64,000 bases of DNA, from assembly GCA_964016885.1 (NCBI GenBank), contig OZ024740.1, forward strand, positions 413,788,001 through 413,852,000, written 5' to 3'. The position numbers and the translations under genes were made by a program. Below the pieces are notes generated by a model. It did not search any database and was not told where the DNA came from. It saw nothing but the letters and a program-made list of their open reading frames with translations. Source of the DNA: Eledone cirrhosa. Its lineage: Eukaryota. Below are positions 10,176-61,550 of this stretch, in pieces. How positions within the stretch are numbered: position 1 is the stretch's first letter; each line of letters opens with the position of its first letter.

Positions 10176-10790
10176 GGCGGTTGATTGGCAGTATCTGTAG
10201 AGGGTCGGTCGCCATGCTTTGTAGCAAAGAATTACGGCCCTTTATGGTCTCAGTTAAAATCCCGCCGAGGTTAACTTTGCCTTTCATCCTTATGGGGTTG
10301 ATGAAATAAAGTACCAGTAATACACTGAGAAAATTGCTGGCCTTGTGCCGAGAGAAGAAACAATTATTATTGGCAGTATCGGTAGAGGGTTGGACACCAT
10401 GCTTTGACGCATAGAGTTACGGCCCTTGCCATTCTGTGTTCAAATCTCGCCGAGGTTAACTTTGCCTTTCATCCTTACGGGGTGGATAAAATAAAGTACC
10501 AGTAATACACTGGCTAATTGCTGACCTTGTGCCAATATTAGAAACAATTATCTTTGTGATTATTATAGACGGAGGATTGGCAGTATCAGTAGAAGGTCGG
10601 ACGCCATGCTTTGCAGTATAGAGTTACGGCCCTTTATGATCTTATTTCAAATCCCGCCAAGGTTAACTTTGCATTTAATCCTTACGGGGTCGATAAAATA
10701 AAGTACCAGTCCCGTACTAGGTTCGATTTAATCAACTTTCCGCTACCCTAAAATTACTGGCCTTGTGCCTATATAAAAAACAATATTATT
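10176..10790 (+). mobile_element. Three tandem tRNA-derived SINEs (octopus OK-type-like)
   Basis: A-box-like TGGCAGTATCGGTAG, B-box GTTCAAATCCC, core aactttgcctttcatccttacggggtcgataaaataaagtaccag, ATT-rich tail; units start at ~10176, ~10370 and ~10570. Confidence 0.85.
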
Positions 10791-24366: not shown

Positions 24367-27057
24367 CAAGAAGGTAGATGAGAGAAAAGTGCTTAATACA
24401 AGATTCCAAACATCAGTCTATAGAGATATGAAGAACAAAATAATAAGTGTCACTGAGGCCCCATCCCAGAAAGACATAACCCTTTTGGAGCAAAATATGG
24501 GGTGAAAAGAAGAATTTCAACCAAGATGCAGTGTGGCTAACAGAAATCCGAAATAACTATTGCTCCTACACTACAACAAAAACATACGAAATAAGTGAAG
24601 GTACCCTTGAGACTGTGATAGGAAAACTGCAAGATAAGAAAACACCAGCAAGAGACATGATTGTCGGCTACTGGTACAAAAAACTGATATTCTATCGGAG
24701 GTATCTTACTGACCTCTACCAACAAGTTCTTAAGGGAGATACACTTATACCAGAATGGTTGACATTAGCACAAACATTACTGGTCCCCAAGAACAAAGAT
24801 ACCCACTTGGCAAAAAACTACCGACCCATTGCATGCCAGAACCTGATGTATAAGATGTATACAGCCTGCCTGAACCTGTTCTTCCAAGATCACTGTGAAA
24901 ATAATAACATCACCATAGACAAACAAGCTGGAAAGAAAGGGGTTTGGGGATGTGCTGAACAACTCCTAATCAACAAAACTGCGATGTCGGAGGTGCGACA
25001 ACTTAGGAAGAATATGGCTACAGTCTGGCTGGACTACAGGAAAGCTTTCGATTCTGTTCCCCACTCTTGGATGATAGAGGCCCTCCAACTTGCTAAAGTC
25101 CCAGACATTATTGTCAGAGACATAGAGAGACTGTCTTCTTCTTTGGCTACTATCCTAAGGTTAAAGACAGAGAGAGGGGACTCTATTATCACTGATAAAA
25201 TAATGTCGCAGGGGTATATTTCAGGGAGACAGTCTCTTTATGATATTATACATCTTGTCATTAAACCCCTTGTTCTTTCTGCTCAAGAAATGTGAGGGAA
25301 ACATCATTGGCTCACAGGAGGACAGAAATACGAACCTAACCCATAATTTCTTTGTTAATGATCTGAAACTCTATGCTATGAACATTGATGGGATGAAGAA
25401 AAATCTTCACCTGGTTACAATGTTCTCAAAGGATATGGGAATGGAGTTTGGCCAACATAAATGATCATACATGCCTGTAAAGCGGGGAAAAACAACAACC
25501 CAATCTAACAACGTTGTCATCAATGGCCTAACTGTTTCACCGATATCTGATGAGGACTGCTACAGATACCTGGGGATAGATGAGAACATATCCTATAATG
25601 GTAACTGTAATAAGGAACGCGTAACCAGGGAATACTACACCCGATTAAGAAAGATTTGGTCATCGGAACTCTCTGCGCAAAACAAAACTGTGGCTTACAA
25701 TGTGTTTGCTGTGCCTCTCCTAACACCAACGTTAGGAATACTCAATTGGACGATAGACGAAGTAGTTGATGTTGGAACTCGAAAAATGCTAAACAACACC
25801 AGAAACTTCCACATCAACAGTGACGTAGACCGCCTTTACTTGAATCGTAAGCAGGGAGGCAGAGGCCTAACCTCAATCCAGACAACATTTGAATGTCGCA
25901 TCATGTCCCTCTGACAACATCCATCTACGAACCTCGAAGCATATGAGTCCGTCTCTCGAGCAACTCTATCTGCATGAAACAGATAAGATCATGAGAGTTG
26001 GGAAGGAACTCCTCGAGAGATATTCCCTGTGTGATAATCAAAATCTCACATACCTATCAGCAAAACTGCATGGTTATCGGCAAAAATGCATGGATATGTT
26101 GCCAGGATGCTCCAGAGTGAGAGTAATGTAGATAAGGAAAGTAGTCTATCTTGGACCAACAACCGCTATATTAGCTCCCACTTTGAAGGATGCGCTTTGC
26201 AATCTAAGAACAGGAAATTAACACGAAATACCCGATTCACAAAAGAGATAGGGGTGCAGGCAAAACACCTAGATGTGATAACAAGTGCAGACTCTGCAGA
26301 ACTAATATCGAGGATATCACCCATTTCATCAGCAGCTGTCCAAATATGTCATCGCGGTACCATCTACCTATGAGGCATGGTGTAGTGGCCAAAACACTGT
26401 ACAATGCAGTTCGTAAAAACGATATCCCCGATAATAAACACATTAAAAGCTGCAGCAATGTGGAAGACATCCACGTACATAATATGAAAGAGTACTGGTG
26501 GAATGTTCCAGTAAAAACCCCAATAAAATGCAGGCATAACAAACAAGATATTATGATATGGGACAGGGAGAAGAAAGCATGCACAGTAGTGGAAATTAGC
26601 TGCCCAGCAGATGCCAATGTAATATCAAACATTATCGAAAAGGAGAATATTTATGCAGGACTGATGAGAAATCTGCAGATATTCCACCCTGATTACACCT
26701 TCAGATTTATGCCTGTGGTTATTGGGGCACTGGATATGTTAGTAACTGCCTCAATACAAATCTTGAGAAGCTAGGCTTCACAGGAACAGAAAGAACACAA
26801 CTAGTTAGGAAATTACAAGTACAATCCATTAATGGAACAGTAAAAATATGTAAGACTTTCCAAAAATGTTGCATCTAATAACTGCATATACACATGTACA
26901 TATACAACGCATATACACATGCAGACATACAACTCAAAACATCCACATCCACACACAATTACATCCATATCTACACATGCATGTATGCATACATAATTTT
27001 AGAAACCGACTCTCTCTCTATTGGGAAAGAATTTGTGAAACTATAAAACCAGAAGAA
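24367..27057 (+). mobile_element. R4/Dong-clade non-LTR retrotransposon, 5'-truncated (copy 2)
   Basis: RT motifs NYRPIAC, WLDYRKAFDSVPH, FVNDLKL; CCHC and RLE region; same 3' end at (CATA)n. Confidence 0.9.
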
Positions 27058-27144: not shown

Positions 27145-30100
27145 TTCATCAGTCAACGCGATCAGTCGCATATTTTGGCGTGGGAGACTATTTATTAAAT
27201 TTAAGATGAATACTATCTCCGACAGTAATGCCACAACTACAGCCAGGTTGAATAACTGGTTATTCTTCTAACTATCTCTTCTGAAGACACCTTTTATTCG
27301 AATTCGTAGAGATATCCGACTAAATACATAATTCATTTTACAAGTATTTGCTACAAACAGCATGGCTGAACACAACATCAACAAGAACATTAAGGAAGTA
27401 TCGAAGACAAATAACAAAGAAGGTAATCAAACTTTATTCAGTTGTAGCTACAGAAGAAACCGAAATTATAAATCGCATTTCTCTTGGGGTTGCGAACTTA
27501 ATGATGATTTATTTAATTGTTATAAAATGGCAAAAAACAATCCCTCCATTGGCTATATGAATAGAATGGAGCTACACTGGGACGAAATGCACTCAGAGCT
27601 AAATTATTTCACAGCGAAACAATTACGCCAACAAGCGACGTTTGTTGAACGTAAAAATAAGATAAATATTATTAATTGTAAGTCCCCCACAACAAACATG
27701 GAATCAACAACACGTGCTACAGATCGCCATGCTACTAGACTTCCTAGCAGCCAGGTCGAACAGCGCCTTGAAACAATTATGCCTGTACCATCTAAGCCTA
27801 CCTCGAATGCTGGGGAAAACACTATCGATAATAATAATAATCGAAGAAATAATAATAATAATCGAATAAATGTGACACCACGTATACCATCCGAGTCTAC
27901 CTCGACTGTTGTGGAAAATACTATCGATAATGATAATCAAAAGTATAAACAATTGAAAATTTCCCTCAACGAAATCTTCCAGAGAGAAATTAACTCATGT
28001 ATAAATATCTCTCTGGCTGAACGTGTTAAAATGACAATGCTGAATAAAAAACCAAATAATGAAATACTACGTGTTATTGACGAAATAGGGGATGAATATT
28101 TACGACGGATAAAACCCCAACATTTTGGCAAATCAACGCCTGTTTATATGCCTTAGCAATGACAGTGAAGCATTATCTTGGTGATAGCAGAGATATTAAC
28201 AAGAACAAAACACCACCAAAAATACCATCATATATAACTAAAATAGAAAAAAAGACTGCTGACCTACGAAAAAACATAGGGCATGTGATAATGCTCCTTA
28301 CATGAAAACAAACACAAAATAACCTCACTCCTCACCAACAAAGAGTGAAAAATAAAATAGAGACGATGTTTGGTAACAGTAGAACCAGAACTCTCCAATA
28401 TAAGCTGATCACCCTCAAAGAAGAATTGAGAGCTGTTAGCGAAAAACTCCGATACCTGAAGAAGGTAGATGAGAGAAAAATGCTTAATAAAAGATTCAGA
28501 CGAAACCAAACATCAGTCTATAGAGATATGAAGGGCAAAATAATAAGTGTCACTGAGGCCCCATCCCAGAAAGACATAGATTCCTTTTGGAGAAAAATAT
28601 GGGGTGAAAAGAAGAATTTCAACCAAGATGCAGTGTGGCTAACAGAAATCCGAAATAACTATTGCTCCTACACTACAACAAAAACATACGAAATAAGTGT
28701 GGGTACCCTTGAGACTGTGATAGGAAAACTGCAAGATAAGAAAACACCAGCAAGAGACATGATTGTCGGCTACTGGTACAAAAAACTGATATTCTATCGG
28801 AGGTATCTTACTGACCTCTACCAACAAGTTCTTAAGGGAGATACACTTATACCAGAATGGTTGACATTAGCACAAACGTTACTGGTCCCCAAGAACAAAG
28901 ACACCCACTTGGCAAAAAACCACCGACCCATTGCATGCCAGAACCTGATGTATAAGATGTATACAGCCTCCCTCAGCCTATTCCTCCAAGATCACTGTGA
29001 AAGTAAGAACATCATCACAGATGAACAAGTAGCTGGAAGGAAAAGGGTTTGGGGATGTGCTGAACAACTCCTAATCAACAAAACTGCGATGTCGGAGGTG
29101 CGACAACTTAGGAGCAATATGACTACAGCCTGGCTGGACTACAAGAAAGCTTTCGATTCTGTTCCACACTCTTTGATGATAGAGGCCCTCCAACTTGCTA
29201 AAGTTCCAGACATTATTGTCAGAGCCATAGAGAGGCTGTCTTCTTCTTGGGCTACTATCCTAAGGTTAAAGACAGAGAGGGAGGACTCGATTTTCACTGA
29301 TAAAATAAAATATTGCAGGGGTATATTTCAGGGGGACAGTCTCTCTGTGATATTGTTCATCTTGTCATTAAATCCCTTGTCCTTTCTGCTCAAGAAATGT
29401 GAGGGCTACATCATTGGCTCACAGGAGGACAGAAATACGAACCTAACCCATAACTTCTTTGTGGACGATCTGAAACTCTATGCCAAGAACATGGATGGGA
29501 TGAAGACAAATCTTGACCTGGTTACAACGTTCTCAAAGGATGTAGGAATGGCGTTTGGCCAAGATAAATGCTCATACATGATAGTAAAGCGGGGAAAAAC
29601 AACAACCCAATCTAGCAACATTGTCATGAATGGTCTAGCTGTTTCACCGATATCTGATGAGGACTGCTGCAGATACCTGGAGATAGATGAGAACATATCC
29701 TATAATGGTATCTGTAATAAACAACGCGTAACCAGGGAATACTACAGCCATTAAGAAAGATCTTGTCATCGGAACTCTCTGCGCAAAATAAAACAGTGGC
29801 TGACAATGTGTTTGCCATGCCTGTCCTAACACCAACGTTTGGAGTACTCAATTGGACGATAGACGAAATCCGAGCAGTTGATGTTGGAACTCGAAAAGTA
29901 CTGAGCAACACCGGAGGCTTCCACATCAACAGTGGCATAGACCGCCTTTACTTGAAACGTAAGCAGGGAGGCAGAGGCCTAACATCAGTCCAGACAAGAT
30001 TTGAATGTCGCATCATATCTCTCCGACAACATCTACGAACCTCGAAGCGTAGGAGCCCGCTTCTCGAGCAAGTCTATCTGCATGAAACAGATAAGATCAT

Positions 30101-42885: not shown

Positions 42886-43834
42886 TATATATATATAAGT
42901 TGGTATATGTTTGTGTTTCTGAAGAAACACATTATACATTATCACTTTACTTTTAACCGAACATACTTCTCAATTTTTATTTAAAACCTATTTGGTTATG
43001 TCTACTTCTACATATATATAATATCATGTTAGAAATATATATATGTGTGTGAGTGAGTGTTTGTATGGGAGAGGAAAAGACTTCACCACTCGCATGTTTG
43101 TGAGAACATATAATTTAACACCTTTAAGCTAGCATATGTCTCGCTGTTTATTGCAACCATTATCTCGTATAGAGCAGTCATTAAAATCAAGGAAGGTATA
43201 TAAGAATTATTCTAATACGTTTTAAAACATTACATGGTGTTGTTTTATAATAGTAATTGGCACGCTAAGCCAACTGTTATTACTAAGTATGACGTGTTAT
43301 TAGAATGTAGGTAAATATGGCATTACACTATATTCATGCAAAGCGAGTTGTTATAAAAAGAACACCATATATTGTAAAACTGAATATTGATGGAAGCAAG
43401 TTTGAAATAACTGAAAGAACATTAACTGAGTAACACGACACATATATTCTATATACACAAAAGACGAAACTTATGGAAATATGCATATCCGAGTTAATTA
43501 TATTTAACAAAATTGTATGTGTGTTCGAGGCTTATGTGTTTGTGTTTGTGTGATAATGAACACGTAAAGTAATTCTCAAGTGCTGTTGCTGTTCTTGTTT
43601 AGTCCTAGTTCAGCTTTGAACAAATGTTTTCCACTCGAGACTATTACGTATGTGTTTCAAGCCCACTGGATCTACGACTGCAACATCTAATGTATTCTTC
43701 CTTAATTTAAGACGACATGGCGTATTTTATGAGGGACTGTACTGCTAATTCTAATTTAACCACTGACCGTGTAGTGTCTCCTCTGTTTATTTGCCTGTGC
43801 TGAATCCAATTTCTTCTGAGGAAATAACAAGCGC

Positions 43835-44190
43835 GGTGACAAACCCCTCGTCTGGGATGCCACTTGGACCGACACTTTCTCCAGCCGCAACCTGGTGCAG
43901 TCTACAACTAACGCAGGTTCTGCTGCATGTCGGTCTGAGGAGGCCAAACTCTCCAAATACCGGTCGCTCTCCGACAGGTTTGCGGTCGTACCCTTGGCAG
44001 TGGAGACTTCTGGTGTCTTCGGCCCTAGGGCTACCTCCCTACTCACCACCATAGGCGCTGAGCTGGCCAACCGCAGGTGTGAGCCCCGCGTGTTGGAATG
44101 GCTCTTCCAGCGCGTCTCCCTTGCCGTCCTCCGAGGAAACGCCTTCTCCATTCTGTCCGCCGGGGCTGTGGGGAGGCCATCAATATGATT
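43835..44190 (+). pseudogene. 3' RLE endonuclease fragment of a CRE-clade retrotransposon
   Basis: WDATWTDT..KLSKYRSL..VPLAVETSGVFG..WLFQRVSLAVLRGNAFSIL. Confidence 0.8.
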
Positions 44191-45580: not shown

Positions 45581-45759
45581 AATGTTGATCTCCGCTTTGT
45601 ATATATTGATATATGGAGAATACTAATGCTACCTTTCCAGTATATACCAATTCCATCGCTTTACCTTTAGTATCGCATAAGGCTAACATAACAATCCAAC
45701 GTTGTGATATTTGTCGATGCATCCTACGCGTGACAGTAGCTGTTCGACATAATTCCACA

Positions 45760-46108
45760 GGTCGGTCACTCCTGGGCACTGAACAATTGCGTGCAGAACG
45801 GTTTCAATGTCCTGCTCGCATCTTGGACAGGTCCTTTTGGCAGGATCCATGTCAGGGCGTGCGTGCCTGTAGATTTTGTCTCTAACTGGTAAAGCTCATC
45901 GGTAGCACTGCCAGTCCAGAGACCTCTGGAAGTTATCCATAGGTCCTGGATGGAAAGTCCTCCCGATCAGACTGGCTAGTTGGTCCTCTTCGATGCCTAG
46001 TGCCTCCCAGAGAACGTCGTCGCACTTATCCCCCACTAATCCCCTATAGAATGTCGACGTGGAGTCTCCGCTGATTAACGTTTTCGATTGGTAGAGGGTT
46101 GTGAGCAC
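45760..46108 (-). mobile_element. Old L1/Tx1 ORF2 C-terminal fragment abutting (GATA)n
   Basis: STSTFYRGL..GRTFHPGPMDNFQRSLDWQCYR, homologous to downstream copies. Confidence 0.8.
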
Positions 46109-46110
46109 CT

Positions 46111-46185
<75 letters not shown>

Positions 46186-47132
46186 TTTTTTATTTACCAT
46201 AAAGGCATAAAAAGAAGGGACAAATACAAAGGGGGAGTTTACATAAAACCGAGTAAAAAGGGTATAAAATGAAAATAATCAAAAACAACCTCAAAAGGGA
46301 GGGGACGTGATGGGGGTTGCACACACCCCCGAAAAAGTGTGCAATCCTTTGCCCTGGGAGCACATGGAGGAGGTGCTCCCCTCTCCTTCACTTCTTTACC
46401 TACAGGATGGTATACAGAGAAGGCCCATTTACACGAGCCATTCTCGCCACTATCACCCACCTTTCATAAAACTGCCTGTGGCAAAGCACCTCTCTCTCCA
46501 TTCTTATCCTTCTTCCGAAGTGATATCGGAAGAAGTAGACCAGACTATGGCCAGAGAGGAAGTTGCCTGACCTCAGACCTTTCAATCGTTACCACCAAAC
46601 AACCTCTTTCAACATGGCTATTACGCACAGAAAAACCGCCTTTGCTTCCTTTGTGAAGAGGGGAGGCGGCTTGATTGTCATCACGGACTCGGAGGTCAAT
46701 CGAATCGGCGCCACCCGCGACAGCAGTTGTTCGGCGAAGCCCCACAGATCAGCCACACCCGGACATTGCACCAATGCGTGCGCAACGGTTTCTTCGTGAC
46801 GCACGCATCTAGGGCAAATCTTTTTCGAGGGATCCCTGCCCGGGCGCCCGTGTCTGTAGAGCTTTTCTCGAACTGGTAGAGCCTCCCGGTAGCACTGCCA
46901 GGCCAGTGACTTCTGGAAGTTGTCCATTGGTCCCGGGCCGAAGTCCTACCGAACAGGCTGACCAGTTCGTCCTCTTCCATGTCCAGCAACTCTCCAAGGG
47001 TGTCATCGCCCCTGCTAACCACCAGCCCGTATAGAATGACGAGGTGGATTCTCCACCAATGGCCGGGTCCACTTGCCAGAGAGCCCTGAGCGCCTGGGCA
47101 CACTCAGTGTGCCAGTCATCCAGTTTTCGGGA

Positions 47133-48869
47133 TCATTGCTTGACCCAGGACTGCAGCTCGGTGAGCGAGACGAGTCTCGGAAAGGCTCGTCTCACGAACG
47201 GAGCCCACACCGGTTGACCAGTGAGGAATACCTGTAGGCGCCGTAGCCTTAATGCGTGCCTACGCATCATCAACCACGGCATCCCCAGCCCTCCTTTCGA
47301 AGGTTGTTGGCAGCAGATGGATCTTCTCACCATAGGAGGGCGCTTTTTCCAAAGAAATTGAAAGAGCACGCGTTCCATGTTGGTGAGTGTTTCTTTAGGG
47401 CAAGGCACGACAGTAAGGCGGTAGTAGGTGACGGGCGCTATGTAAATGTTCGCCACCTCCGCCCGACCTTTCAGGGACAGCTTACACTTGGCCCATTTCT
47501 GGTTCAGTGCAAACACCTTGCTCGTAACCTCGCCCCAGTTCTTTTCCACCTGGAGGCCCGGTCCAAACCAGACCCCAAGCAACTTCACCGGGCCCTCCGT
47601 CCAGTGTCCGACGACACCGTCGGGAGGCATCGGTCTGACTCTCCACGTTCCGAGTTGCAGCTCGATGGATTTTTCCCGGTTCAGTTTCGCTCCTGACAAC
47701 CTTTCGTATTCCTCCAGTAAGGTGCCGATCGCTTCGATCTCCGAGTCGGTCGATACCATTACTGTTACGTCATCGGCGTAGGCCGACACCGCTTTGCTCA
47801 ATCCTGGTTCCAGGGGGATACTCTGCAACAACTCCAACTTCCTCAGTAAAGGCTCGAGAGTCAGTACGTACATAAGGGAGGAGAGAGGGCACCCCTGTCG
47901 AATGGATCGTGTGATTTCGAACGGCTTCGAAAGGTAGCCGTTCACCTTGATCCTAGAACAGATGTGGTTGCTATGTAAGGCAGTGATCCAGCCTCTGAAA
48001 ACAGGGCCGAACCCAGCCGCCGCTAGCACCGCATCCAGGTAACCATGGTCAACCCTATCGAACGCCTTAGACTGATCCAAGTTGATCAGGGCCCCACCGA
48101 AGCCGGGTTTGTTGCCAACCCTCTCTATGATGTATCGCATGAGGTGGAAGTTGTCGTGAATGGACCTGGATGGGGTAGCACGTGTCTGATCATCTCCCAC
48201 CAGGCTACCCACGACAAGCGCCAACCTCTTTGCTAACACCTTGGCCAAAATCTTTAACTCTGTGTTTAGCAGGGTTATGAGCCGAAAATTATTTATACTA
48301 TCCCCCTTGTTCTCGTCCTTCCTCACCAGCGAGACTACGTCCTTGGCTACAGAACAAGGAATTCTCCCGTTCTGCTGCCAATTGCAGTAGACTGCTTCGA
48401 GGAGTTCGGAGAAGAAGACCGGCATTGCCAAATAAAGTTCGTAAGGTATACCATCGAGACCTGGAGATTTGCGTTTGCTGCATTGGCTCAGCGCATCCCC
48501 GATCTCATCAGCCGAGATTGGTCGCTCGCAGGATTCTGCCTCTTCGCTTGTTAGACGCGGCAGGCCGTCGAGGTATGGACAGAAATCCACGTCCACGCCC
48601 AGACCCCCTCCTCCCCCGAACAATCGGGCAAAGTGCCTTTGAAAGGCCTCGCACATCTGCTTAGGCTCCCGGATCACCCGTCCAACCTCGTCTTGCAAAG
48701 ACCGGATGGTGGATCGATTTCCACTCTTAGCTTCTGTCACGCGGGCCCAGCCAACGGCTTTGGCCCCCTCATTACCTAGAGCACGTATTTTACTTCGAAT
48801 GACGCAGCCTTCGTGCTTTGCATCGAAAAACTGGCTCAAGGCCGTCCGCGTTGCCAGCACTCTGGCCAC
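47133..48869 (-). CDS. Tx1 ORF2 reverse transcriptase part (frameshifted from the APE part)
   Basis: 578-aa ORF: KSPGLDG, LITLLNTELKILAK, QGCPLS, AYADDV. Confidence 0.88.
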   Translation of the reverse strand: MARVLATRTALSQFFDAKHEGCVIRSKIRALGNEGAKAVGWARVTEAKSGNRSTIRSLQDEVGRVIREPKQMCEAFQRHFARLFGGGGGLGVDVDFCPYLDGLPRLTSEEAESCERPISADEIGDALSQCSKRKSPGLDGIPYELYLAMPVFFSELLEAVYCNWQQNGRIPCSVAKDVVSLVRKDENKGDSINNFRLITLLNTELKILAKVLAKRLALVVGSLVGDDQTRATPSRSIHDNFHLMRYIIERVGNKPGFGGALINLDQSKAFDRVDHGYLDAVLAAAGFGPVFRGWITALHSNHICSRIKVNGYLSKPFEITRSIRQGCPLSSLMYVLTLEPLLRKLELLQSIPLEPGLSKAVSAYADDVTVMVSTDSEIEAIGTLLEEYERLSGAKLNREKSIELQLGTWRVRPMPPDGVVGHWTEGPVKLLGVWFGPGLQVEKNWGEVTSKVFALNQKWAKCKLSLKGRAEVANIYIAPVTYYRLTVVPCPKETLTNMERVLFQFLWKKRPPMVRRSICCQQPSKGGLGMPWLMMRRHALRLRRLQVFLTGQPVWAPFVRRAFPRLVSLTELQSWVKQ

Positions 48870-49833
48870 ATCTTCGCTCGTGATTGCTCTTCTAATTTAC
48901 CTGTTAATTCTTTCTCGTTCCTATTCCTATCGGCAGCTAACATCTTGCTATAACTTATTGATTCTGTTCTAATCTCTCTTTTGAGAGATGCCCACCATCG
49001 GTTGTTGACGATTGCACCCGTCAACCTCTCCTTAACTAATCTGCTAATTCGGTCTCTGTAAGCATCTTTTGCCGGTAAAAACAAATTAAGTTTCCAGTAA
49101 CCGCGACCCTGTCTATGTGTTCTCTCAAGGTTGACTACGCAGGTCACTAATTTGTGATCTGTATAGCCAACCGTGAGCATTTCTGGACAGCTTAATATGT
49201 CCCTATCCTTACTTCGAACTAAGAATCTATCTAAGTACGATCTAGATTGACCACAAAGGTTCGTCCAAGTCCAGGTTGGTACAGTTGGAAAATCTAGTCG
49301 ATATCTATTGACCAAGTTAAAACGGTCGAGTAATCCCTTGAGGCTGTTACACCCCCCTCTATTAGGACAAGCTCCTGCATAGTCCCAACGTGCATCTAGG
49401 ATGTCATTCCAGTCCCCCGCTAGTAGCAGGGAACGCGACGTTACCAGAAAAGTCTCCAGACGCTGGAAGAAGTCGGGTCGTTCAGCTCCGAAAGGGGAGT
49501 AGACGGCGACCAGTTTCAAGGCCGCACCTCCACTACTGCCAACGTCTAGCACCAACAAACGACCTTCCAGGTCCGAGTGAACAACCTGTACGGCGAGACC
49601 CAGGTGTTTTTCCAGCAGTACGACAACCCCACCCCCACCTCCAGGTAGACAGAGAGATGCGTGCACCTCAAAGTCATCGAAGGTAGGTGCCAGCTGCCGC
49701 ACGACGCTGATCCGAGTCTCACAGATAACCATTACATTTATACCACGTGACCTGAGGTCATTTAGAAGCTTTGCTTGTTTTCAAGTTGAGCCCAGGCACG
49801 TGCATTCAAACATCCTACTCTTAACACATCCAT
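48836..49833 (-). CDS. Tx1 ORF2 apurinic-like endonuclease part (disrupted near start)
   Basis: MDVLRVGCLNAR start, ICET, GDWN, LDRF, TDHK, GYWKLN. Confidence 0.85.
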
Positions 49834-50197
49834 GTGGGCGGCAAAGCCAAAGGAGAGTGTAGAGACTTACCTTTCTGCTTCCCGGTGTTCGGGTCGAACG
49901 ACTTCCATGGGGTCGGGGGTGTTGGGTGAAGTGGTGTCTTGTGGTGGTGTGGGGTCGTCAGTGTGTGGTTGGGTTGGGGTGTTTGGAGTTGTGTTGGGAA
50001 GGGGAGGGGAAAGCTTTTTAGGAGGACGCGGTTTATGGGTTTGATAGAGGGTGGTCCTACGTCCTCTTTAAAATCCTTTTTTAGTTTTTGGTAGAGGTTC
50101 ATTGGGATCTTTATTAATTTTAAATTTGGGTAGTTTTCTGAAGAAACAAAGTTTACCCCTTCGGTTTGTACCGAAGGGTTATTGTTTATGAGTTCAT

Positions 50198-51851
50198 TTA
50201 ATTTATTATTGTTTCTGTTGATGTAAGTATAGTGTAATGTCTTTTTTTCGGATGGTGTGAGTGTTTCGAAGAGGGGAGGGGCAGGTTTGGTTTTGTTTGT
50301 TGCTGGAGGGGTGTTTTGTGTTTTGTTGGATTGTGTTGACATTTGGGTAGAGGCTGTTTGGCCTTGTGTGTTTTGCACATGTTTTCTTTTTTTCCTTTTA
50401 ATCTGTCTGAAGGACTCCGTTTCTTCCTCCGAATCGTTGGGTTATCTTCAGTGTTGGAGGGGAGAGGTATGTTTGCTGGTAATGTTTCCGTGTTGGTTTT
50501 CTTTGTGGGGGAGATGGATGTCACTATGCTAGACTGTGTTGTGTGTTGTGGCTGCGGTGGTTGTGTTGTTTTATTGAGTGAGGGGTTGGGTGGGACTGTG
50601 TTTTGTTTTTGGTTAATGTGTTGTGTCTGTTTGTGCTGTGGTGGTGGTGTAGTTTTACTGAGGGACCGGTTGGGTGGGGCTGAGTTTTGTTGTTTGTTTA
50701 TCTGTTGTGGTGGTGGTGGAGCTGGTGTTGGTAGCAGGGTTTTCTTCTTGTTGAGTTGTGGACAAGCCGCCTTCAGGTGCCCTCTGCCTGCACAGATATG
50801 ACAGGACGGCCTTCTCCCCTCCACGCTAATGTTTATATACCCGTGGCCCTCTAATAGGATTCTGTCGGGTATTTGGACAATGCGTTCAGGCTTCATTTGC
50901 ACTACAAGTTCTATACCTGTTCCACTGAACGCATTGCCTGTGGTTTTCCCAATGGAAATCACGTTGTCATTCGCTGGATCGATGAAGCCAGCTATGAGCC
51001 AGCAGTAGTCCACATCTGGCATCATCGCATCCAGCCATATGCGCTGAGTTCTTTTACCCATATAAGATGGATAAAAGGTAAAATTTGTCGAGCGAATCGG
51101 CGACAAAGCATATTTTTTGCCGCTGATTCGTTCTTCATAATAATGGCAAGGCTTCCATACAGCCTGTCTCTTCTTATGAAAGTGGCTTCATTAAGTACTT
51201 CTGTAAGTACTGCTTTAATTTCTGCTTGTGTTGGTTGTTGAGGTTTTTTTGAGATGTTGTTGATGGTGCGGAAAACGACCGTCCGACTTTCAATATCTTT
51301 GGTGAGTTCTTGGGGCATATTTATCGATAAGGTTCCATTTTCCCCTTGAGTTATTATTGTTTTGCGTTTTTTATTCTTTGTGCCACATCTGAAATATTTT
51401 CAGGTATATATGTTAAAGATTTCTTTGTTGTTTGTGCAAATGAGATATTATTGGTGTTGACTTTGTCGTCTGTTTTGCTTTCTGTTATGATGTTGTTTTC
51501 AAATGTTATTTTTGTGTTTGTTGTTTCTTTGCTTGTGGTATTAATATTGTCATGCAATTCTTTCAATTTTTTTTTGTTGTTGGACACAATCTCCAGATTT
51601 GTGTTTTCGTCATTTTTCTCCGCACATTCGTCTGTTTTTCTTTTCTTTTTTCTTTCCTTCTCTATGAGGTTAGTTGAGAAGGAAGGGGGGACTAAAGCGT
51701 GCGAGCTTACAATTCTTACCGCTGTCACCCCCCCACCACTATTTTCGTTAGCTTCGTTTAACATTTCTGCCAGACGATTGAAATTTTGTGCCACACAATT
51801 TTTAAAAACAGGTTGTTCACCCCTGGGAGGGGCGAAGATGAGGTCACCCAC
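50198..51851 (-). pseudogene. Tx1 ORF1 (gag-like, CCHC zinc knuckle), frameshifted
   Basis: EGRRPSCHICAGRGHLKAACP followed by P/T/N/K-rich low complexity. Confidence 0.78.
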
Positions 51852-51986
51852 CGCCTAACAGTTCAGACGGGTGGTCAAGCTAGACAATAGTATCAAAATT
51901 AAAATTAAACTTACAAAATTTCCGCAATAAATTGGAAGAAAGCTTCTGCGCGAAGTGAATTACGTCTACGCTGTCGAACAGACGAC

Positions 51987-52072
<86 letters not shown>

Positions 52073-52182
52073 CTTTCTTTTTATTTGCCACCAGGGCATC
52101 AAAGAGTGGGACAAGTACAACGGGGGGGAGTTTACATAAAAAGGCGTCCTCAATAAGGAGGAGGCAATAACAAAATATAAAA
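52073..52182 (-). mobile_element. Tx1 3'-tip insertion (~110 bp) in (GATA)n
   Basis: tttatttgccaccagggcatcaaagagtgggacaagtacaa matches the 3' UTR of the long copies. Confidence 0.85.
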
Positions 52183-52233
<51 letters not shown>

Positions 52234-52234
<1 letters not shown>

Positions 52235-53174
52235 ATTCCTTTATTAGCCACAAGGGCACAAAAGAAGGGGACAAATACAAATGGGGAGTTTACATACAGG
52301 TATATGAAAATAAAACTTTTAATACAATAACAAATAACAATTGAAATCCCCAATAGGGGGAGGTGTTACACAGGGGTTGTACACACCCCGAAAAAATGTA
52401 CAACCCTCATCTCCAAGAATGGGTACTCCCTTCCTCTCTTCCTCTTTTTCCTCAACCTACAGGCTTATATAGAGAGAAGGCCCAACCACTCGGGCCATCT
52501 TTACCACATTCACCCACCTTTTATAAAATTTGCTGGGGTACAGCACCTCTCTCTCCATCCTGATTCTTCCAAAATGATATTTGAAAAAACGGATCAGTTG
52601 CTCGCCGGAGAGAAAGGTGTCTGACCTCAGCCCTTTTAACCTCGTCCACCATATAACCTCTTTCACCATAGCCATAACACATAAGAAAACCGCCTCTCCC
52701 TCGTTTTTGAAGGAGGGTGGCTGTTTGATCACGACAATGGACTCGGTCGTCAACTGGATTGGTCCCACCCGCGACAATAGTCGTTCTACATAGCCCCACA
52801 GGTCGGTAACGCCCGGGCAGTGTACAAATGCGTGTGCGACGGTTTCTTGGTCGCGCACGCATCTCGGACAGATCTTTTTCGAATGGTCCCTACCCGGGCG
52901 CCCATGTCTGTAGAGCTTGTCTCGAACTGGTAGAACTCCTCGGTAGCACTGCCAGGCCAAGGACTTTTGGAAGTTGTCCATTGGTCCCAGGCGGAAGGTC
53001 CTACCGAACAGACTGGCCAGTTCGTCCTCCTCTACGCCTAGAGTTTCTCCGAGCGTGTCGGCGCACTTGCTGCGGACCAACCCTCTATAGAATGTCGAAG
53101 TGGAATCTCCACTGATCGCCCGGTCCGTTTGCCAGAGGACTGTGAGCGCCTAAGCACATTCGATGTGCCAGTCA
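52234..53174 (-). mobile_element. 5'-truncated Tx1 copy (~0.94 kb) in (GATA)n
   Basis: ORF2 C-terminus CPRC..HAFVHC plus 3' UTR. Confidence 0.9.
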
Positions 53175-53195
53175 TAGATAGATAGATAGATAGAT

Positions 53196-53242
53196 AACTT
53201 TCTTTTTATTTGCCACCAGGGCGTCAAAGAGCGGGACAAGTA
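53196..53242 (-). mobile_element. Tx1 3'-tip insertion (~47 bp)
   Basis: tttatttgccaccagggcgtcaaagagcgggacaagtac between GATA and GACA repeats. Confidence 0.8.
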
Positions 53243-53312
53243 CAGACAGACAGACAGACAGACAGAAAGACAGACAGACGGACAGACAGGCAGGAACACA
53301 GATAGATAGATA

Positions 53313-56300
53313 AGTTTCTATTTATTTGCCATGAGGGCACAAAAGAAGGGGACAAATACAAGAGGGGGAGTTTACATAAAGGAACGAGTAAAAAACAAAT
53401 AACATAAAATTAACAATACAGTCCTCAATAGGGAGGAGGCGTTTTGGGGGTTACACTCACCCCCGAAAAAGTGTGCAACTCTTTTCCTTAGGAACACAGA
53501 GAGGGGTGTGCTCCTTTGAACTTCCACCTTTCCACCTACAGGCTGATAAAGAGAGAAGGCCCATTCATACAGGCCATTCTCGTTACTTTCACCCACCTTT
53601 CATAAAACTTGCTGGGGTAGAGCACCTCTCTCTCCATTCTGACCCTTCTCTTAAAATGGTATTTAAAGAAAAGGACCAGTTGTTGTCCGGAGAGAAAGGT
53701 GTCCGACCTCACCCCTTCAAACGTGTCCACCATTCCACCTCTTTCACCATGGCTATTACACCGAGGAAGACCGCCTCTCCTTCATTTTTGAAGGGGGGAG
53801 GCGGCTTGATCGTTACAATGGACTCGGTGGTCAACCGGATTGGTCCCACCCGTGACAGCAGTCGTTCGACATAGCCCCACAGATCGGCAACGCCCGAGCA
53901 GTGTACCAATGCGTGCGCAACGGTTTCCTCGTCGCGTACGCATCTGGGATAGATCTTTTTCGAGGGGTCCCTACCCAGGCACCCGTGTCTGTAGAGCTTT
54001 TCTCGAACGGGCAGCGCCCCTCGGTAGCACTGCCAGGCCAGGGACCTCTGGAAGTTGTCCATAGGTCCCGGGCCAAATGTCCTCCCGAATAGGCTGGCCA
54101 GTTCGTCTTCTTCCATGCCTAGGCCTTGTCCGAGGGCGTCGTCGCAACTACTAACCACCAGCCCTCTATAGAATGATGAGGTGGAGTCTCCACCGATAGC
54201 CGGGTCCTCCTGCCAGAGAGCCGTGAGCGCCTGGGCACACTCGGTGTGCCAGGCGCCCAGTTTTCTCGGTCTTTGCTTGACCCAGGACTACAGCTCGGGG
54301 AGCGAGACGAGTCTCGGAAAGGCTCGCCTCACAAACGAGGCCCACACCGGTCGACCGGTGAGAAATACCTGGAGGTGCCGTAGCCTTAATGCGTGTTTAC
54401 GCATCAGCAACCACGGCAACCCCAGCCCTCCTTTCGAAATGTGTTGAGAGCAGATGGATCTCCTCACCAAAGCAGCCCGATTCTTCCAAAGGAATTGGAA
54501 GAATGCGCGCTCCATTTTGGTGAGCGTTTCCCTTGGGCAAGTCACGAAGGTCAGGCGGTAATAGATGACGGACGCTATATAAGCGTTCGCCACCTCCACC
54601 CGACCTTTCAGGGATAGTTTGCACTCAGCCCACTTCTCCATCAGCGCAAACACCCTGTTCGATACCTCACCCCAGTTCTTCTCCACCTGGAGGTCTGGCT
54701 CGAACTAGACCCCGAGCAACTTCACCGGGCCCTCCGTTCAACGTCCGACGACGCCATCGGTCTGCCCCTCCACTCGCCGAGTTGCAAACCGACTGACTTG
54801 TCCCGGTTCAGCTAAGCCCCTGTAAACATTTCGCATTCGTCCACTAAGGTGCCGATCACCCCGATTTCCGAGGCGGTTGATACCATTACTGTCACGTCAT
54901 CGGCGTAGGCCGACACCGCTTTCCGCAATCCCGGTTCCAAAGGGATGCACTATAACAACTCCAACTTCCGCAGCAGTGGCTCTAGGGCCAATACATACAG
55001 AAGGGAGGAGAGAGGGCATCCCTGTCGGATGGACAGCGTGATTTCGAATGGACCTGGACGGGATGGCGCATGTCTGCGCATCTCCCACCAGGTTGCCCAC
55101 GACAAGCGCCAACCTCTTTGCTAACACCTTGGTCAAAATCTTTAACTCTGCATGTAACAGAGTTATGGACCTGAAATTACTTATTTCATCCCCCTTGTTC
55201 TCGTCCTTCCTCACTAGCGAGACAGAAAAGGGAATTCTCCCGTTCTGTTGCCAGTTGCAGTAGACCGCCTCGATGAGATCGAAGAACAAGTCCGGCATAT
55301 TTAAATACAGTTCGCATGGAAGACCATCGAGGCACGGAGATTCGCGTCTTCCACATTGGCTCAGCACGTCCCCTATTTCAGCAGCTGAGATCGGTCTCTC
55401 GCAGGTCGTCGCCTCTTCGTCCGAAAGATGCGACAGGTAGTCGAGGTATGGACCGAGGTCCACATCCCCATCCGGCCGCTCGCCTCTTCCGAACAATCGG
55501 GCAAAGTGCCTTTGAAAGGCTTCGCACATCTGCTTAGGTTCAAGGATCACCCGTCCATCCTGGTCTCGCAAAGCCCGGATAGTGGATCTAATCCCACTTT
55601 TGGCTTCTGTCACGCGGGCCCAGCTAACAGCTTTGGTCACCTCGTTTCCCAGAGCACGTATTTTTCTTCGGACAACGCAGCCTTCATGTTTCGTGTCGAA
55701 GAACTGGCCCAAAGCCATTCTCGACGCTAGCACTCTGGCTACGTCGCCGCTTCTAATTGCCTCTTCTACGATATCTACCAACTCCCTTTCCTTCCTATTT
55801 CTATCTGAGGCTAACTCCTTACTAACTCCTATTGAAGCTACTCTAATCTCTCTTTTGAGAGAGCCCCACCACCTTCTGTTGACGATGGCGCCCATTAACC
55901 GCTCCTTAACTAAAGTACTAATCCGGTCCCTGTAAGCTTTACTTGCCGGTAAGGACAAGTTGAGCTTCCAGTAACCGGGTCCCTGTCTATGCGTTCTATC
56001 AAGGTTAACCATGGAGGTCACTAACTTGTGGTCTGAATAGCCAACCATGAGCATTTCTGGACAACTTAAAAAGTTCCTATCCTTATTTCTAACTAAGAAC
56101 CTATCTAGGTACGATCTAGATTGACCGTTGTGGTTTGTCCAAGTCCAGGTTGGCACAGTCGGAAAATCTAGTCGATATCTATCGGCCAGGTCGAATCGGC
56201 CGTTTAACCCCTTGAGGCTGTTACAACCCCCTCTATCAGGACATGCCTCTACATAGTCCCAACGTGCATCTAGGATACCATTCCAGTCCCCCACTAAAAG

Positions 56301-58553
56301 CAAGGAGCGGGACCTCCCTAGAAAATCTCCAGACGATGGAAGAAGTCCGGCTGCGTTGACCCAAAAGAGCCGTAGACGGCGACCAGCCTAAAAGCTCCGC
56401 CTTCACCACTGCCAAGGTCCAGAACCACTAATCGACCCTCCGGGTCCAAGTGTACCGTCTGTGTAGCGAGACCCGGATGTTTTTGCAGCAGAACAACAAC
56501 CCCACCCCCACCTCCAGGCTGACAGATAGATGCGTGCATCTCAAAGTCATCAAAGGTGGGGGCCAGTGTCTCACGCTGCTGATCCGTGCCTCGCAAATAA
56601 CCATCACATTTATACATCGTGACCTGAGGTCATTTAGAAGCATTGCTTGCTTCCAAGCTGAGCCCAGGCCACGCGCATTTAGACAACCTACTCTCAACAC
56701 AGCCATGTTGGTGGTAAAGAGAAAAGGCACTTACCTCTCTGCGTCCCGGGGACCGGGCCGCACAATTTCCAACGGGGTGGGGTGGGTTGTTGGGTGGGGG
56801 TGGTTTGTGGAAGTGTAGGGGCATCAGTGTGTGGTGGGGTTGGGGTGTTTGTAATTGTGTGGGTGTCTGGGGGGGATTTTTTAGGAGACCACGGTTAATG
56901 GGTCTGACGCAGCGGGGCCCCTCGTCCTCTTTAAAAGTCTTTTAACGTTTTGTAAATGTCCATTGGAGGATTTGTCATTTTTAGATTGGGAAGCTCCGTT
57001 GCTTATGCGAAATTCGAACCTTCGGTTTTTATGAAGTTGTTATTATAAATAGCGTTTAACAGTTTTTTGTTTATTGTGTTTATGTAAGTGTATGCATATT
57101 TTTCTTTTTGTGTGATGTTTTTTGTTTGCTGTTGTTGTGTGTTTTTTGTGTTGATGTCTGTGTTATGTATTGGGGAGGGGTTGTTTGTATTTGTGTTCCT
57201 GTGGTGTATTTTCTTTTTTTCTTTTAACTTTATGAAAGTGTCCGTCCGTCCCCCCCCCCCCCCCCCCGTCTGACGACAAAAGGGGTCGTCTTCCGTATTC
57301 GAGGGGAGCGGTACATTTTCGGCTCGTGTTTGTGGTGTGGGTGTTATTGTATTTGTTTTCTGTGTGGGGGTGGGGAGATGGGGGGGGGGATTGCTTTCAG
57401 TTGTGTGTTAACTTGTGGTGTTAGTTGTTTTTGTGGTGGTGGTGGAGGTTGTGTTGGTAGTGTTGTAGTTGTTGGTGTGGGCAAAATCGGTGTTTTTTTT
57501 GTTTGCTTGCGAACAGGCAGCCCTCAGGTGACCTCTGTCACCACAGAGGTAACAAGCGGGTCGTCTACTATCCACTGTGATGTGTAAGTAGGCAAGCCCA
57601 TCCAGCAATATGCCGTCGGGGATCCTAGCAATTCGTTCTGGCTGCATTTGCACCAGAACTTGCAGGCTAGTTCCACTGAACACGTTGCTGGAAAACTTAC
57701 CTACCGAAATTACTGCATCCTCTTTCAAGTCGAAGAGGCCACACAGTACCGCCCAGAAATCAATATCTGGATTGATACTGTATATGGTCAATCTTTGCGT
57801 TCTTCTTCTCAAATACGTGGGGAAGAAGTTAAATAAGGGGGACACAATTGGGGCCAGGGAATGTTTTTCGGCCGTCAATGTAGTTTGAGCGAACGTCATT
57901 TTGTTCGCTCCCTCTTTGTTTACATTTTTCGAAATGTGGTTGTTTTCTTGTTTTTTGTTGTTACAATTTCCATTTTTTGTTGTGTTTGTGTTATTTATGT
58001 TGGTGTATGCGGTCACATTTGTTCCCCGTTGGGGTTAGACTCCATTTTTTCAAAATGTTCACTTATATTTTCAGTATCCGAGAGACTTGTAGTCACAGCT
58101 ACTACTTCTCTTTTACCTTTGCTGTGTGGGTGTGGCACCGTGAAAAGTCGAAACGGCATCCATTAATTTTGGCAATTTCTCCGAGTCAATTTTTTTCACA
58201 TTTTTTTCATTAGGGTTACGCTCCATTTTTTTCAATGTTTCTAATAATCATTATTCTTTCAGTAGGGAGGCTTGTTGCACCGCAACCCGCTCTCCTTCAG
58301 TTTGTTTAGTGGGCGAGTCATCGTTAACTGTGGTAATGGCTTCCATTACCACTAGCGTAGAGACAATCACAAGATTTTTAGGATGAAAACTTTCACCCCA
58401 AAAGGGGTGAAATAAATTAACCCTAATGTCCAAAGACCCAGGCAAGGGGGTTAATTAACACAATAGCGCAAGAATACAGACAAACACTTACTGTTAACAC
58501 GTAATATCTGCAATACTCGCGGAGCGGATGTGAAGAACGTCTATACCATCCGG
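53313..58553 (-). mobile_element. Full-length-like Tx1 element (copy B, different subfamily) with internal deletions
   Basis: ORF1 CYLC..GHLRAAC; ORF2 MAVLRVGCLNARG at 56706; RT lacks ~240 bp near 55048; GATA repeats on both flanks. Confidence 0.92.
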
Positions 58554-59759
58554 AGATAGATAGATAGACTGTCTATAATATGTCTATTTGTTTCATCGGA
58601 GATAATAATATCGCCACATTTATTCATCTGTCAGTATGTCAATTTTGTTGGAACGTGTGCAGATAATTTAATCTCATATGATGCGTTTTTCATCTGATAG
58701 CTTACAAACATTCAACCAATGAATGACTAGGATTGTTAACGATTCATTTCAGGAAAGCATGAAATGATTATTGCGACAGACCTTTTCATATTCATCCGTT
58801 AAATCCAGGCGTCACAATGTCATCGAATCCTTAGATTAGTTTACAAAGAACTATGATCAAATTGAATCTTGAAACCTCAAAGGATTTTACCTATTTCATA
58901 TCTAAATAAATCTGATAAATGAACTAAATTTTATGCGCACATCGATGCATTGGTACATCTAATATTCAATATATCTTTAATTTGTCATACGGACATAGAT
59001 TTACTGAATTCTTACTTGTACAAACATATTAGATTATATGACAGTAATATTGGTTCCTGCGATATAGTCGTATAAGAGGATGAGTTCCAAATACGTGAGC
59101 TCGAAACGCAGTTGTGCTTCTCGTTATAGTTTTAACCCAGTCCAACGTTAAGTGAATAAACTTATCGTCAAATATGTTCCATCCATCAACATTGCATTTT
59201 CTTATATCAAGGATTAAATCGTCCAATATATAGTTTTGTGTATTTTAATAAAATATGGTGATTTTTAGTGATATTCGAAAGTCATTTCCAGCATATAAAT
59301 CGACGAATATATGCTCTTGATAACTAATTCCTGTTAACAAATTGTTTTACATATGTAACACAGCGAAGGTTGCATCGCAAAAGCCAGTCTTTCACCTTCG
59401 AATTCACAATGTACTGGAGTCATTATAAGATACATTTGAGAAGGATAAGCTTACCTGAAACCTGCTGTAGTTGCAGTCTGAGGTGATCTTCGTTTGTCTT
59501 TGCTAGTTGCTAGCTTAGCAGTTTCGCTCATTTAGAAAGTGGCCATCGTGTCGCATACGTGTTTGTAAGTTTAAAATGTAATATGAAGGGACCATATATT
59601 TCTCTCTTGTTTTACCATTCACCCCAAGCAAAAATAAGTACTTGGGCATCATAGAATCTCATAAAAGTTGCAGTATATGTAGGAGCAGTTCCAATTCGGC
59701 GATCATAGATACTGCCAAAGAAGCAAGGTCTTGGTGTTGTCATGAGGTTGTATATTTCT

Positions 59760-60915
59760 AACAACTTGAGAGCCCATAAAGTTATGAACCCAACAAATCC
59801 TGGGTTAGGAAAGGGCCAAAGAAACCAGCTGGGTCTGCCTCGAACAATGTCAGATTTTCCAGTGATCTGATAAGTATAAGTGGTTCAGTTTGTAGCTCGG
59901 CCACTGGAGAGGCAAGATCATGTCGTTCAACAACATTGTCGGACACTGGACGAACGGATCGGTGAAGTTTCTCGGGGTCTGATCGGGTCTGCATCACCAG
60001 AGGGATAGACATTGGGATGAGGTAACGAGCAGGGTGGTCACTCTTACTAAACAATGAGCTATCACTGAGAAGTCAGGAGGAGGTGGCGAACATGTATATC
60101 ATTTTCGTTTTCTATTACCGCCTAAGTGTATTGCAGCACCTACACTTTTATTTCTTGTGGAAGGGATAGGTTCCAATGGTGAGGCAGATCATCTGCACCT
60201 AACACACTTTGTCGTGGTTGTTGTTGTGGAAACCGGCGCTGAGGCTTCGGCATTTGTAGATATTCTTAAACGGTCAACAGGTGTAGCCAAGTGTGACGAC
60301 GTTCTTGAGAACGAACTAGCTGACGATAATAAAGTAGCCAATCTCTTCCAAATGACATTCCGTCTGGGGCCTTCGGATAATTTTCTGGTTGTGCTATAGT
60401 GAGCACTGCCGGTTTGAGATAGACTCTACAGGCACAGAAGTGCTGTCAGATAAAACTGTCCGAGATACATAAAGAGAGACGAAACCGTTCTGCTCACACC
60501 CGGCTATCGGCCGACTCCATCCTGAGCATCGCCCAGCCATCTTCATTTGGCCGGGAGGGTGGGTAGTTTTATTTTGTTTGCTGGTTATAGCGAAAATGTG
60601 TGTCTCATGGACGAAACTGAAAACAGATACTTTGCTCTTTGACCACTTGGAAAGGAAGATAGGGTGGAGATGTAAGTGATGTCTCCCAGTAAACTTGTTA
60701 AAAGGTCGATGAATGTAGCAATGATGGCCCGAGTGAATGCATACGCCCGTAGGCTCGAGAAATCAGAGAGGAGAGAGTCACCTACCTATTAGGGTGGTTC
60801 TGGATCCGTAGAATCCACAAACTACCTCTAGGTAATTCTTCACCTATAATTATGTTATTTATTTATTGTTATTTGTTTTTTGTTTTCCCTTCTATTGTCC
60901 TTTATGTTTCGGCCC
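59760..60915 (+). mobile_element. Heavily decayed Tx1-type 3' fragment
   Basis: AKCDDVL..LFQMTFRLGPSDNF homologous to the ORF2 C-terminus; ends tggccaatagaaaaa. Confidence 0.7.
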
Positions 60916-60959
60916 TAATGGCCAATAGAAAAATATTATTTTGTCCTCCCTCAGAATTG

Positions 60960-61333: not shown

Positions 61334-61550
61334 GGGCGATGGGTTGGCAGTATCGGTAGAGAGTCGGACACCATGCTTTGCAGCATAAAGTTATGTCCTT
61401 TACGATCTGAGATCAAATCCCGCCGAGGTTAACTTTGTCTTTCATCCTTACAGGGTCGATAAAATAAAGCACCAGTAACGTACTGGGTTCGATTTAATCG
61501 ACTTTCCCCTCCCCCAAATTACTGGTCTTGAGTCTATACTAGAAATCATT
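61334..61550 (+). mobile_element. tRNA-derived SINE (long-tail form) with target-site duplication
   Basis: attattatgatattaagaa on both flanks. Confidence 0.9.

Follow-up and report, generated by a model that had tools for sequence, protein, structure and literature searches.

Introduction

APE-type LINEs are known to target microsatellites, a habit that is still little understood (PMC3812793). In the Tx1 clade, described repeat targets include (TC)n for Kibi and (TTC)n for Koshi, both in teleost fish (PMC4494074, PMC3812793), and a crocodilian group near Kibi and Koshi, with families such as Tx1-1_Crp and Tx1-2_AMi, prefers (TTCC)n or (TTTC)n; a Tx1 family has been called target-specific when one sequence type is present in >20% of its flanks (PMC4494074). 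ACAY, AC and TAA (PMC3812793) and TG (PMC4640811) are further simple-repeat targets. In the R1 clade, Waldo is directed at (ACAY)n and Mino at (AC)n (PMC3812793), and the telomeric element SART1Bm at (TTAGG)n (PMC7265360). From a cephalopod, Octopus vulgaris, 80 L1-Tx1 consensus families have been reported, of which 13 were recently active (PMC13282606).

Here we describe a cephalopod locus at which six Tx1-like copies lie head-to-tail, all on the minus strand, at 45722-58553 of the 64-kb stretch of DNA that was analysed (the window), with only GATA or GACA tracts as spacers. Like Kibi and Koshi, these are Tx1-type APE-RT elements inside a microsatellite, but where the fish families have a pure pyrimidine target, (TC)n or (TTC)n, the flanks of this stack are mixed GATA or GACA and the host is likely an octopod (PMC4494074, PMC3812793). 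The crocodilian group offers a parallel in that a tetranucleotide target is common to several related families, although its TTCC or TTTC unit differs from the GATA and GACA found here (PMC4494074). Waldo, Mino and SART1Bm are likewise APE-type LINEs directed at simple repeats, but their clade and targets differ (PMC3812793, PMC7265360). The shortest tracts of the stack hold 3-4 units, and SART1Bm requires a minimum of three; SART1Bm also relies on a long poly(A) tail, whereas none is seen in the stack (PMC7265360). The O. vulgaris families carry the same clade label and come from a similar host, and on this comparison, made by description and not by sequence, the stack family may belong among them (PMC13282606). 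The reading that we prefer, and hold to be likely, is that the stack consists of one Tx1-like group that was inserted stepwise, and that the element aims at (GATA)n in one orientation.

Results

Architecture of the stack

Copy borders were set by blastn together with the printed junction sequence, which gave the following features.

45722-46110, minus strand: copy F, lacking its 3' half, 5'-truncated within the C-terminal region of ORF2, 5' end touching GATA
46111-46185, plus strand: (GATA)n tract 1, 75 bp, perfect
46186-51986, minus strand: copy A, 5801 bp, probably full-length, decayed
51987-52072, plus strand: (GATA)n tract 2, 86 bp, perfect
52073-52182, minus strand: copy B, 110 bp, a 3'-UTR end alone
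52183-52233, plus strand: (GATA)n tract 3, 51 bp
52234-53173, minus strand: copy C, 940 bp, 5'-truncated, containing the zf-RVT region
53174-53196, plus strand: (GATA)n tract 4, 23 bp
53198-53244, minus strand: copy D, a 47-bp 3' end, 96% identical to B, 5' end directly on GACA
53245-53312, plus strand: compound spacer between D and E, (GACA)n, an 11-bp interruption and 13 bp of GATA (53300-53312)
53314-58553, minus strand: copy E, 5240 bp, with a 5' end that is probably full-length and an RT that lacks ~230 bp
58554-58568, plus strand: (GATA)n tract 6, 15 bp, between the 5' end of E and non-family sequence

A run scan found seven GATA/TATC runs of at least 12 bp in the 64-kb window, six of them within 46111-58568. 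Outside the stack, the window has a single TATC tract, of 12 bp, against 64 (TA)6+, 21 CATA/TATG, 16 CA/TG and 2 GAAA tracts. The outer edge of the last GATA tract carries a small perfect inverted repeat with 6-bp arms and a 1-base loop (58564-58576).

A stack of co-oriented Tx1-type copies in GATA had been described in an earlier note on this DNA, and the copy sizes and order given there are confirmed. The same note had started the older fragment, copy F, at 45760; its real edge is at 45722, 38 bp further left, and its 3' half was found nowhere in the 64-kb window. Copy F is 72-74% identical to A, C and E by blastn, is basal in the A/C/E/F clade of a quick tree, and is the oldest fragment within the stack. 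The spacers had been given as GATA and once GACA, which is correct overall, but the spacer between D and E combines GACA and GATA repeats, broken by 11 bp of other sequence; the GACA repeat itself spans 53242-53293. Differing truncations, also claimed, hold for several copies but probably not for E, since A and E have 5'-UTR blocks in common within their first 250 bases and, because of these blocks, both are probably full-length, though both are decayed. E is shorter than A because of its internal gap of ~230 bp and a different ORF1.

Coding content and clade placement

The three coding parts recognised in copy A are these.

49821-51854, minus strand: ORF1, split into several frame pieces and bearing one CX2CX4HX4C zinc knuckle
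48839-49780, minus strand: APE endonuclease piece of ORF2, Pfam Exo_endo_phos E 4e-6
47133-48896, minus strand: reverse transcriptase piece of ORF2, Pfam RVT_1 E 2.4e-27

The Tx1-like identity proposed earlier is supported by domain order and RT scores. The hallmarks of Tx1 are present as two ORFs, an ORF2 in which APE and RT are joined by a cysteine motif at the C terminus, and an ORF1 zinc knuckle, for which the zf-CCHC match is under the Pfam curated cut-off (E 0.0026 in the piece from copy E, E 0.12 in A); the first Atlas match of A ORF1 was a CCHC cluster (0.91), taken as a lead only. The zf-RVT of copy C was recognised by Pfam at E 1.1e-6. The catalytic-type motifs ETR, GDWN, LDR and TDH are all present in the APE piece of A. 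The top fold match of its structural model (pLDDT 93) was the LINE-1 endonuclease (E 4e-15, TM 0.77), and a sequence search of solved structures with the same piece gave no match. With a single RT query from A, an alligator TX1-named protein, 36% identical to the query, scored 271 bits versus 149 bits for human L1 ORF2p, and the nearest named relatives among the listed matches belong to Argonauta hians (63-66%) and to a cuttlefish (45%), which makes an octopod the likely host. A quick RT tree held 57 rows (A and 56 rows hand-picked from 240 listed matches, P0006 being dropped as short). In this tree, which was built without an L1 out-group, Repbase references or verified Kibi or Koshi rows, A fell with Argonauta, cuttlefish and unnamed rows (SH-aLRT 100), outside the vertebrate Tx1-like rows, which stood apart (98). 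The stack elements resemble Kibi and Koshi in habit but, judged by their GATA and GACA flanks, are probably members of neither family.

Both long copies are decayed. Where ORF2 aligns to protein P0001, copy A contains 2 stops and copy E contains 5, and each of the two has several frame breaks. Reads placed on A from four public runs carry extra letters at several of its frame breaks, and these breaks look private to this copy or its assembly. The proline/glutamine-rich part of A ORF1 contains a degenerate 84-bp internal duplication (50535-50709 or 50535-50732), and copy E has a different duplication at 58013-58348 (67%).

Several other observations concern the window outside the stack. First, a GC-rich 122-codon frame without a Pfam match lies at 43820-44188 on the plus strand and recalls, as we presume, the C-terminal restriction-like endonuclease of CRE/HERO-type LINEs. 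Second, distant RT-like fragments at 28693-29517 and 24606-25277 (plus strand) are 22-25% identical to vertebrate Tx1-like RTs and probably represent another LINE clade. Lastly, a SINE-like 185-bp unit is present in two tandem copies at 10184-10551, with similar sequence recognised by eye at ~61345-61500.

Target or tail

All six 5' ends touch a tract, five on GATA and that of D on GACA, as do all five intact 3' ends. The five 3' ends align, with AATAAA followed by 6-8 mainly purine bases and then TATC repeats. A 35-letter motif of this end had 5 matches in the window versus 0 in 100 shuffles with 3 mismatches allowed; since it was built from the five ends themselves, the result shows only that the window lacks a sixth young 3' end. 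The motif had 0 matches among metagenome contigs, and a C-terminal protein alignment gave no confirmed locus, its pattern matches numbering 105 in metagenome, 13 in viral and 15 in prokaryote contigs. A 3' stem-loop was not evident in A, B, C and E, whose last 87-90 bases fold no better than shuffles (z -1.3 to +0.7). On the GATA strand, all eleven stack junctions are compatible with insertion at AGAT^AGA(T/C), allowing 1-2 shared bases, with the nick position ambiguous by one base and target-site duplications not callable inside a repeat. GATA is absent 5' of copy D, which means that for this insertion, at least, a target duplication is not visible.

Many CR1/L2-type LINEs write a repeat tail at their own 3' end. 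The (TATC)n could likewise be a tail written by the element, which later copies entered by RNA-DNA pairing with an unspecific endonuclease. Consistent with such a self-made landing pad, a poly(A) tail is absent at all five intact 3' ends, and the tracts become longer in the 3' direction of the stack (Spearman 0.89, p 0.02; when the GACA part is counted, 0.77, p 0.07; n=6), a weak trend that hints at polar growth. Four of the six 5' flanks, moreover, double as a neighbour's 3' tract and a fifth contains one, so that the 5' flanks alone are not decisive. The sixth is that of E, where 15 bp of GATA border on DNA without a family match, and with no element beyond. The 3' tract of E is merely 13 bp long and gives way, after the 11-bp interruption, to a GACA tract that a TATC tail could not have supplied and on which D stands; together these features indicate that the tract was present first, and the 5' end of F, like the 5' flank of E, requires a pre-existing tract. 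Nor is the pattern one of a repeat at the 3' end alone with unique 5' DNA, given the GATA 5' of E, the GACA 5' of D and 10 junctions in reads from other copies. A tail-only origin of the repeat is therefore unlikely, and we give the landing-pad explanation as a whole only a small chance.

Junctions of other genomic copies

Junctions with GATA in one orientation were also seen beyond this locus. Four public runs (X12, X1, X5 and X9) were mapped, at likeness 80, to A extended by 20 bp of GATA on either side, a design that sees GATA junctions only and has no denominator for non-GATA ones; the repeat at the 3' junction was skipped in the mapping, and junction phase was left out of account since the start of the reference tract biases it. 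An internal point of the element is connected to the GATA flank in 3 of the 15 listed of 220 joints and in 8 of the 12 listed of 97 between-letter rows. These give at least 10 distinct 5' points (46235/6, 46522, 46791, 47441, 47461, 47477, 47500, 47502, 47520 and 48323, with 46235 and 46236 merged), all in the orientation of the window and none equal to a truncation in it. In two listed rows, with 121 and 50 reads, GATA adjoins a diverged 3' end, and the one opposite-strand joint among those listed does not involve the tract. A single start site and a GATA part of ~20 letters are common among the read joints, some of which may be library chimeras, and the listed GATA joints all come from one coded organism (X12, X1; none from X5 or X9), which may differ from the species of the window. 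The listed 5'-side loose ends (24 of 2933 loose ends were listed) are mostly diverged element sequence by eye in X12, X1 and X5 and low-complexity ORF1 DNA in X9. At the 47500 joint of X12, three AGCT units, possibly a variant repeat, separate the 5' end of one copy from the GATA tract. The claim of orientation-specific GATA targeting thus has support at the locus, from six of six 5' ends and five of five 3' ends, and from 10 further 5' junctions in reads.

These data also bear on a looser preference, in which insertion is widespread and the stack is an extreme outcome either of a mild bias or of the tolerance that a neutral region offers. For Drosophila Waldo-A/B, passive accumulation close to CA repeats has been proposed (PMC3812793). 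Depth in X12 reaches ~56,000 reads at 47503 against 33-79 reads per GATA joint, which suggests, as a rough estimate, some 1,200 loci, and most copies are not classified. The window itself contains one copy outside any tract, on the plus strand.

59878-60930, plus strand: copy G, an old, heavily decayed and more distant relative, 1.3 kb from the stack and not a member of it

Copy G is 67-77% identical to the family over short blastn matches and has a recognisable 3' end, with no GATA tract at either end; counting it, a GATA or GACA flank is found at 6 of 7 copies rather than at all six of the locus. It is the only family DNA that blastn found in the window outside the stack, no young copy being present there although TA, CATA/TATG and CA/TG tracts are plentiful; as a control within the window, this speaks for GATA targeting. 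A, C, E and F have in common a 4-residue insertion ahead of the C-terminal cysteine pair and form a single clade (SH-aLRT 99 in an 18-row quick tree with G left out), whereas G, like proteins P0001, P0002, P0003 and P0006, is without the insertion. Lying outside the insertion-bearing clade, G may predate the preference, or a short tract beside it may since have disappeared; G still counts as a counter-example to GATA targeting, or as an out-group.

Against a loose preference, no copy interrupts another in the ~12 kb of element DNA in the stack, and all junctions are confined to ~0.3 kb of tract on one strand. Six of the read junctions, moreover, fall inside 80 bp (47441-47520; depth ~52,000-56,000). 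Taking these some 1,200 loci, one truncation per 2,000 bases and a chance of at most ~8 in 10,000 of a 20-bp GATA tract within 12 bp (such tracts number 0 in the 51,101 non-stack bases of the window), fewer than 0.05 would be expected by chance, as a rough estimate. We regard a loose preference as improbable, slightly more so than the landing pad.

Separate source lineages

In the preferred reading of stepwise insertion by a GATA-directed element, the copies arrived independently, as had been claimed. Compared pairwise over their common 342-354 bp, A, C, E and F have identities of 0.73-0.85, a difference of 15-27%, and in all nine codon-aware comparisons the third position differs more (0.28-0.44) than positions 1 and 2 (0.08-0.21). 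This third-position bias points to separately evolving, functional source lineages and not to decay after local duplication, and supports independent insertions. Judged by their sequences, A, C, E and F derive from at least four source lineages, and B and D may represent a fifth; of the earlier proposal of at least two subfamilies, the plurality of lineages stands and the number is raised to at least four. A single event, whether template jumping in one reverse transcription, tandem duplication or mis-assembly, is accordingly very improbable: the head-to-tail order, the 96% identity of B and D over 47 bp and the truncation of C (53173) and F (46110) at element positions no more than 22 bp apart would fit it, but the divergence with its codon bias, decay that differs between copies, and spacers that are unlike each other, one of them a compound GACA repeat, speak against it. 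The truncation zone common to C and F is possibly a pause site for reverse transcription.

Discussion

Stepwise insertion directed at (GATA)n suggests the following mechanism. The original site would have been a compound (GATA)n(GACA)n repeat of the host. The endonuclease is predicted to nick the GATA strand, in the simplest case at AGAT^AGA(T/C); the DNA end released in this way would prime reverse transcription at an RNA 3' end without poly(A). That RNA end may bear UAUC units, acquired by read-through into the downstream tract, which could pair with the primer. Because target would remain on both sides after each insertion, the site would stay open and a stack could accumulate; the long pure tracts beside the left-hand copies were probably lengthened later by slippage. 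The Tx1L endonuclease makes selective nicks upstream of 5'-AGTT-3', and L1 nicks at TTTT/AA (PMC1950540); since the Tx1L site resembles AGAT, and with the L1 site as a further analogy, a T^A nick by the GATA-family endonuclease is plausible.

A wider history can be sketched tentatively, although we think it doubtful as a whole. Microsatellite targeting in this cephalopod Tx1 branch would have evolved independently of that in the fish Kibi and Koshi, GATA would have been kept as target across at least four long-diverged lineages, poly(A) would have been dropped in favour of repeat pairing, and the landing site would have renewed itself, with stacks growing 3'-ward.

The earlier statement that no GATA-specific family has been described agrees with the literature surveyed, a scope outside which lie Repbase and the further microsatellite targets in PMC4494074: no GATA-targeting LINE was found. 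The portions of the O. vulgaris L1-Tx1 survey text and supplement that were available hold no mention of GATA and no target analysis (PMC13282606), and the available portions of PMC3124438 and PMC10294476 hold nothing on a GATA target. GATA is likely a new target for a habit already known in Tx1, an extension and not a new kind of system.

All Tx1 repeat targets that we found on record belong to vertebrates and consist of pyrimidines alone, and a GATA-aimed cephalopod branch, if true, would widen this range. It would also provide several natural endonuclease variants with one common target to set against a close relative, copy G, that lies outside it, and so would make recognition by the endonuclease testable against RNA-DNA pairing. 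For these animals themselves, it would mean that GATA markers can have flanks in common or drop out.
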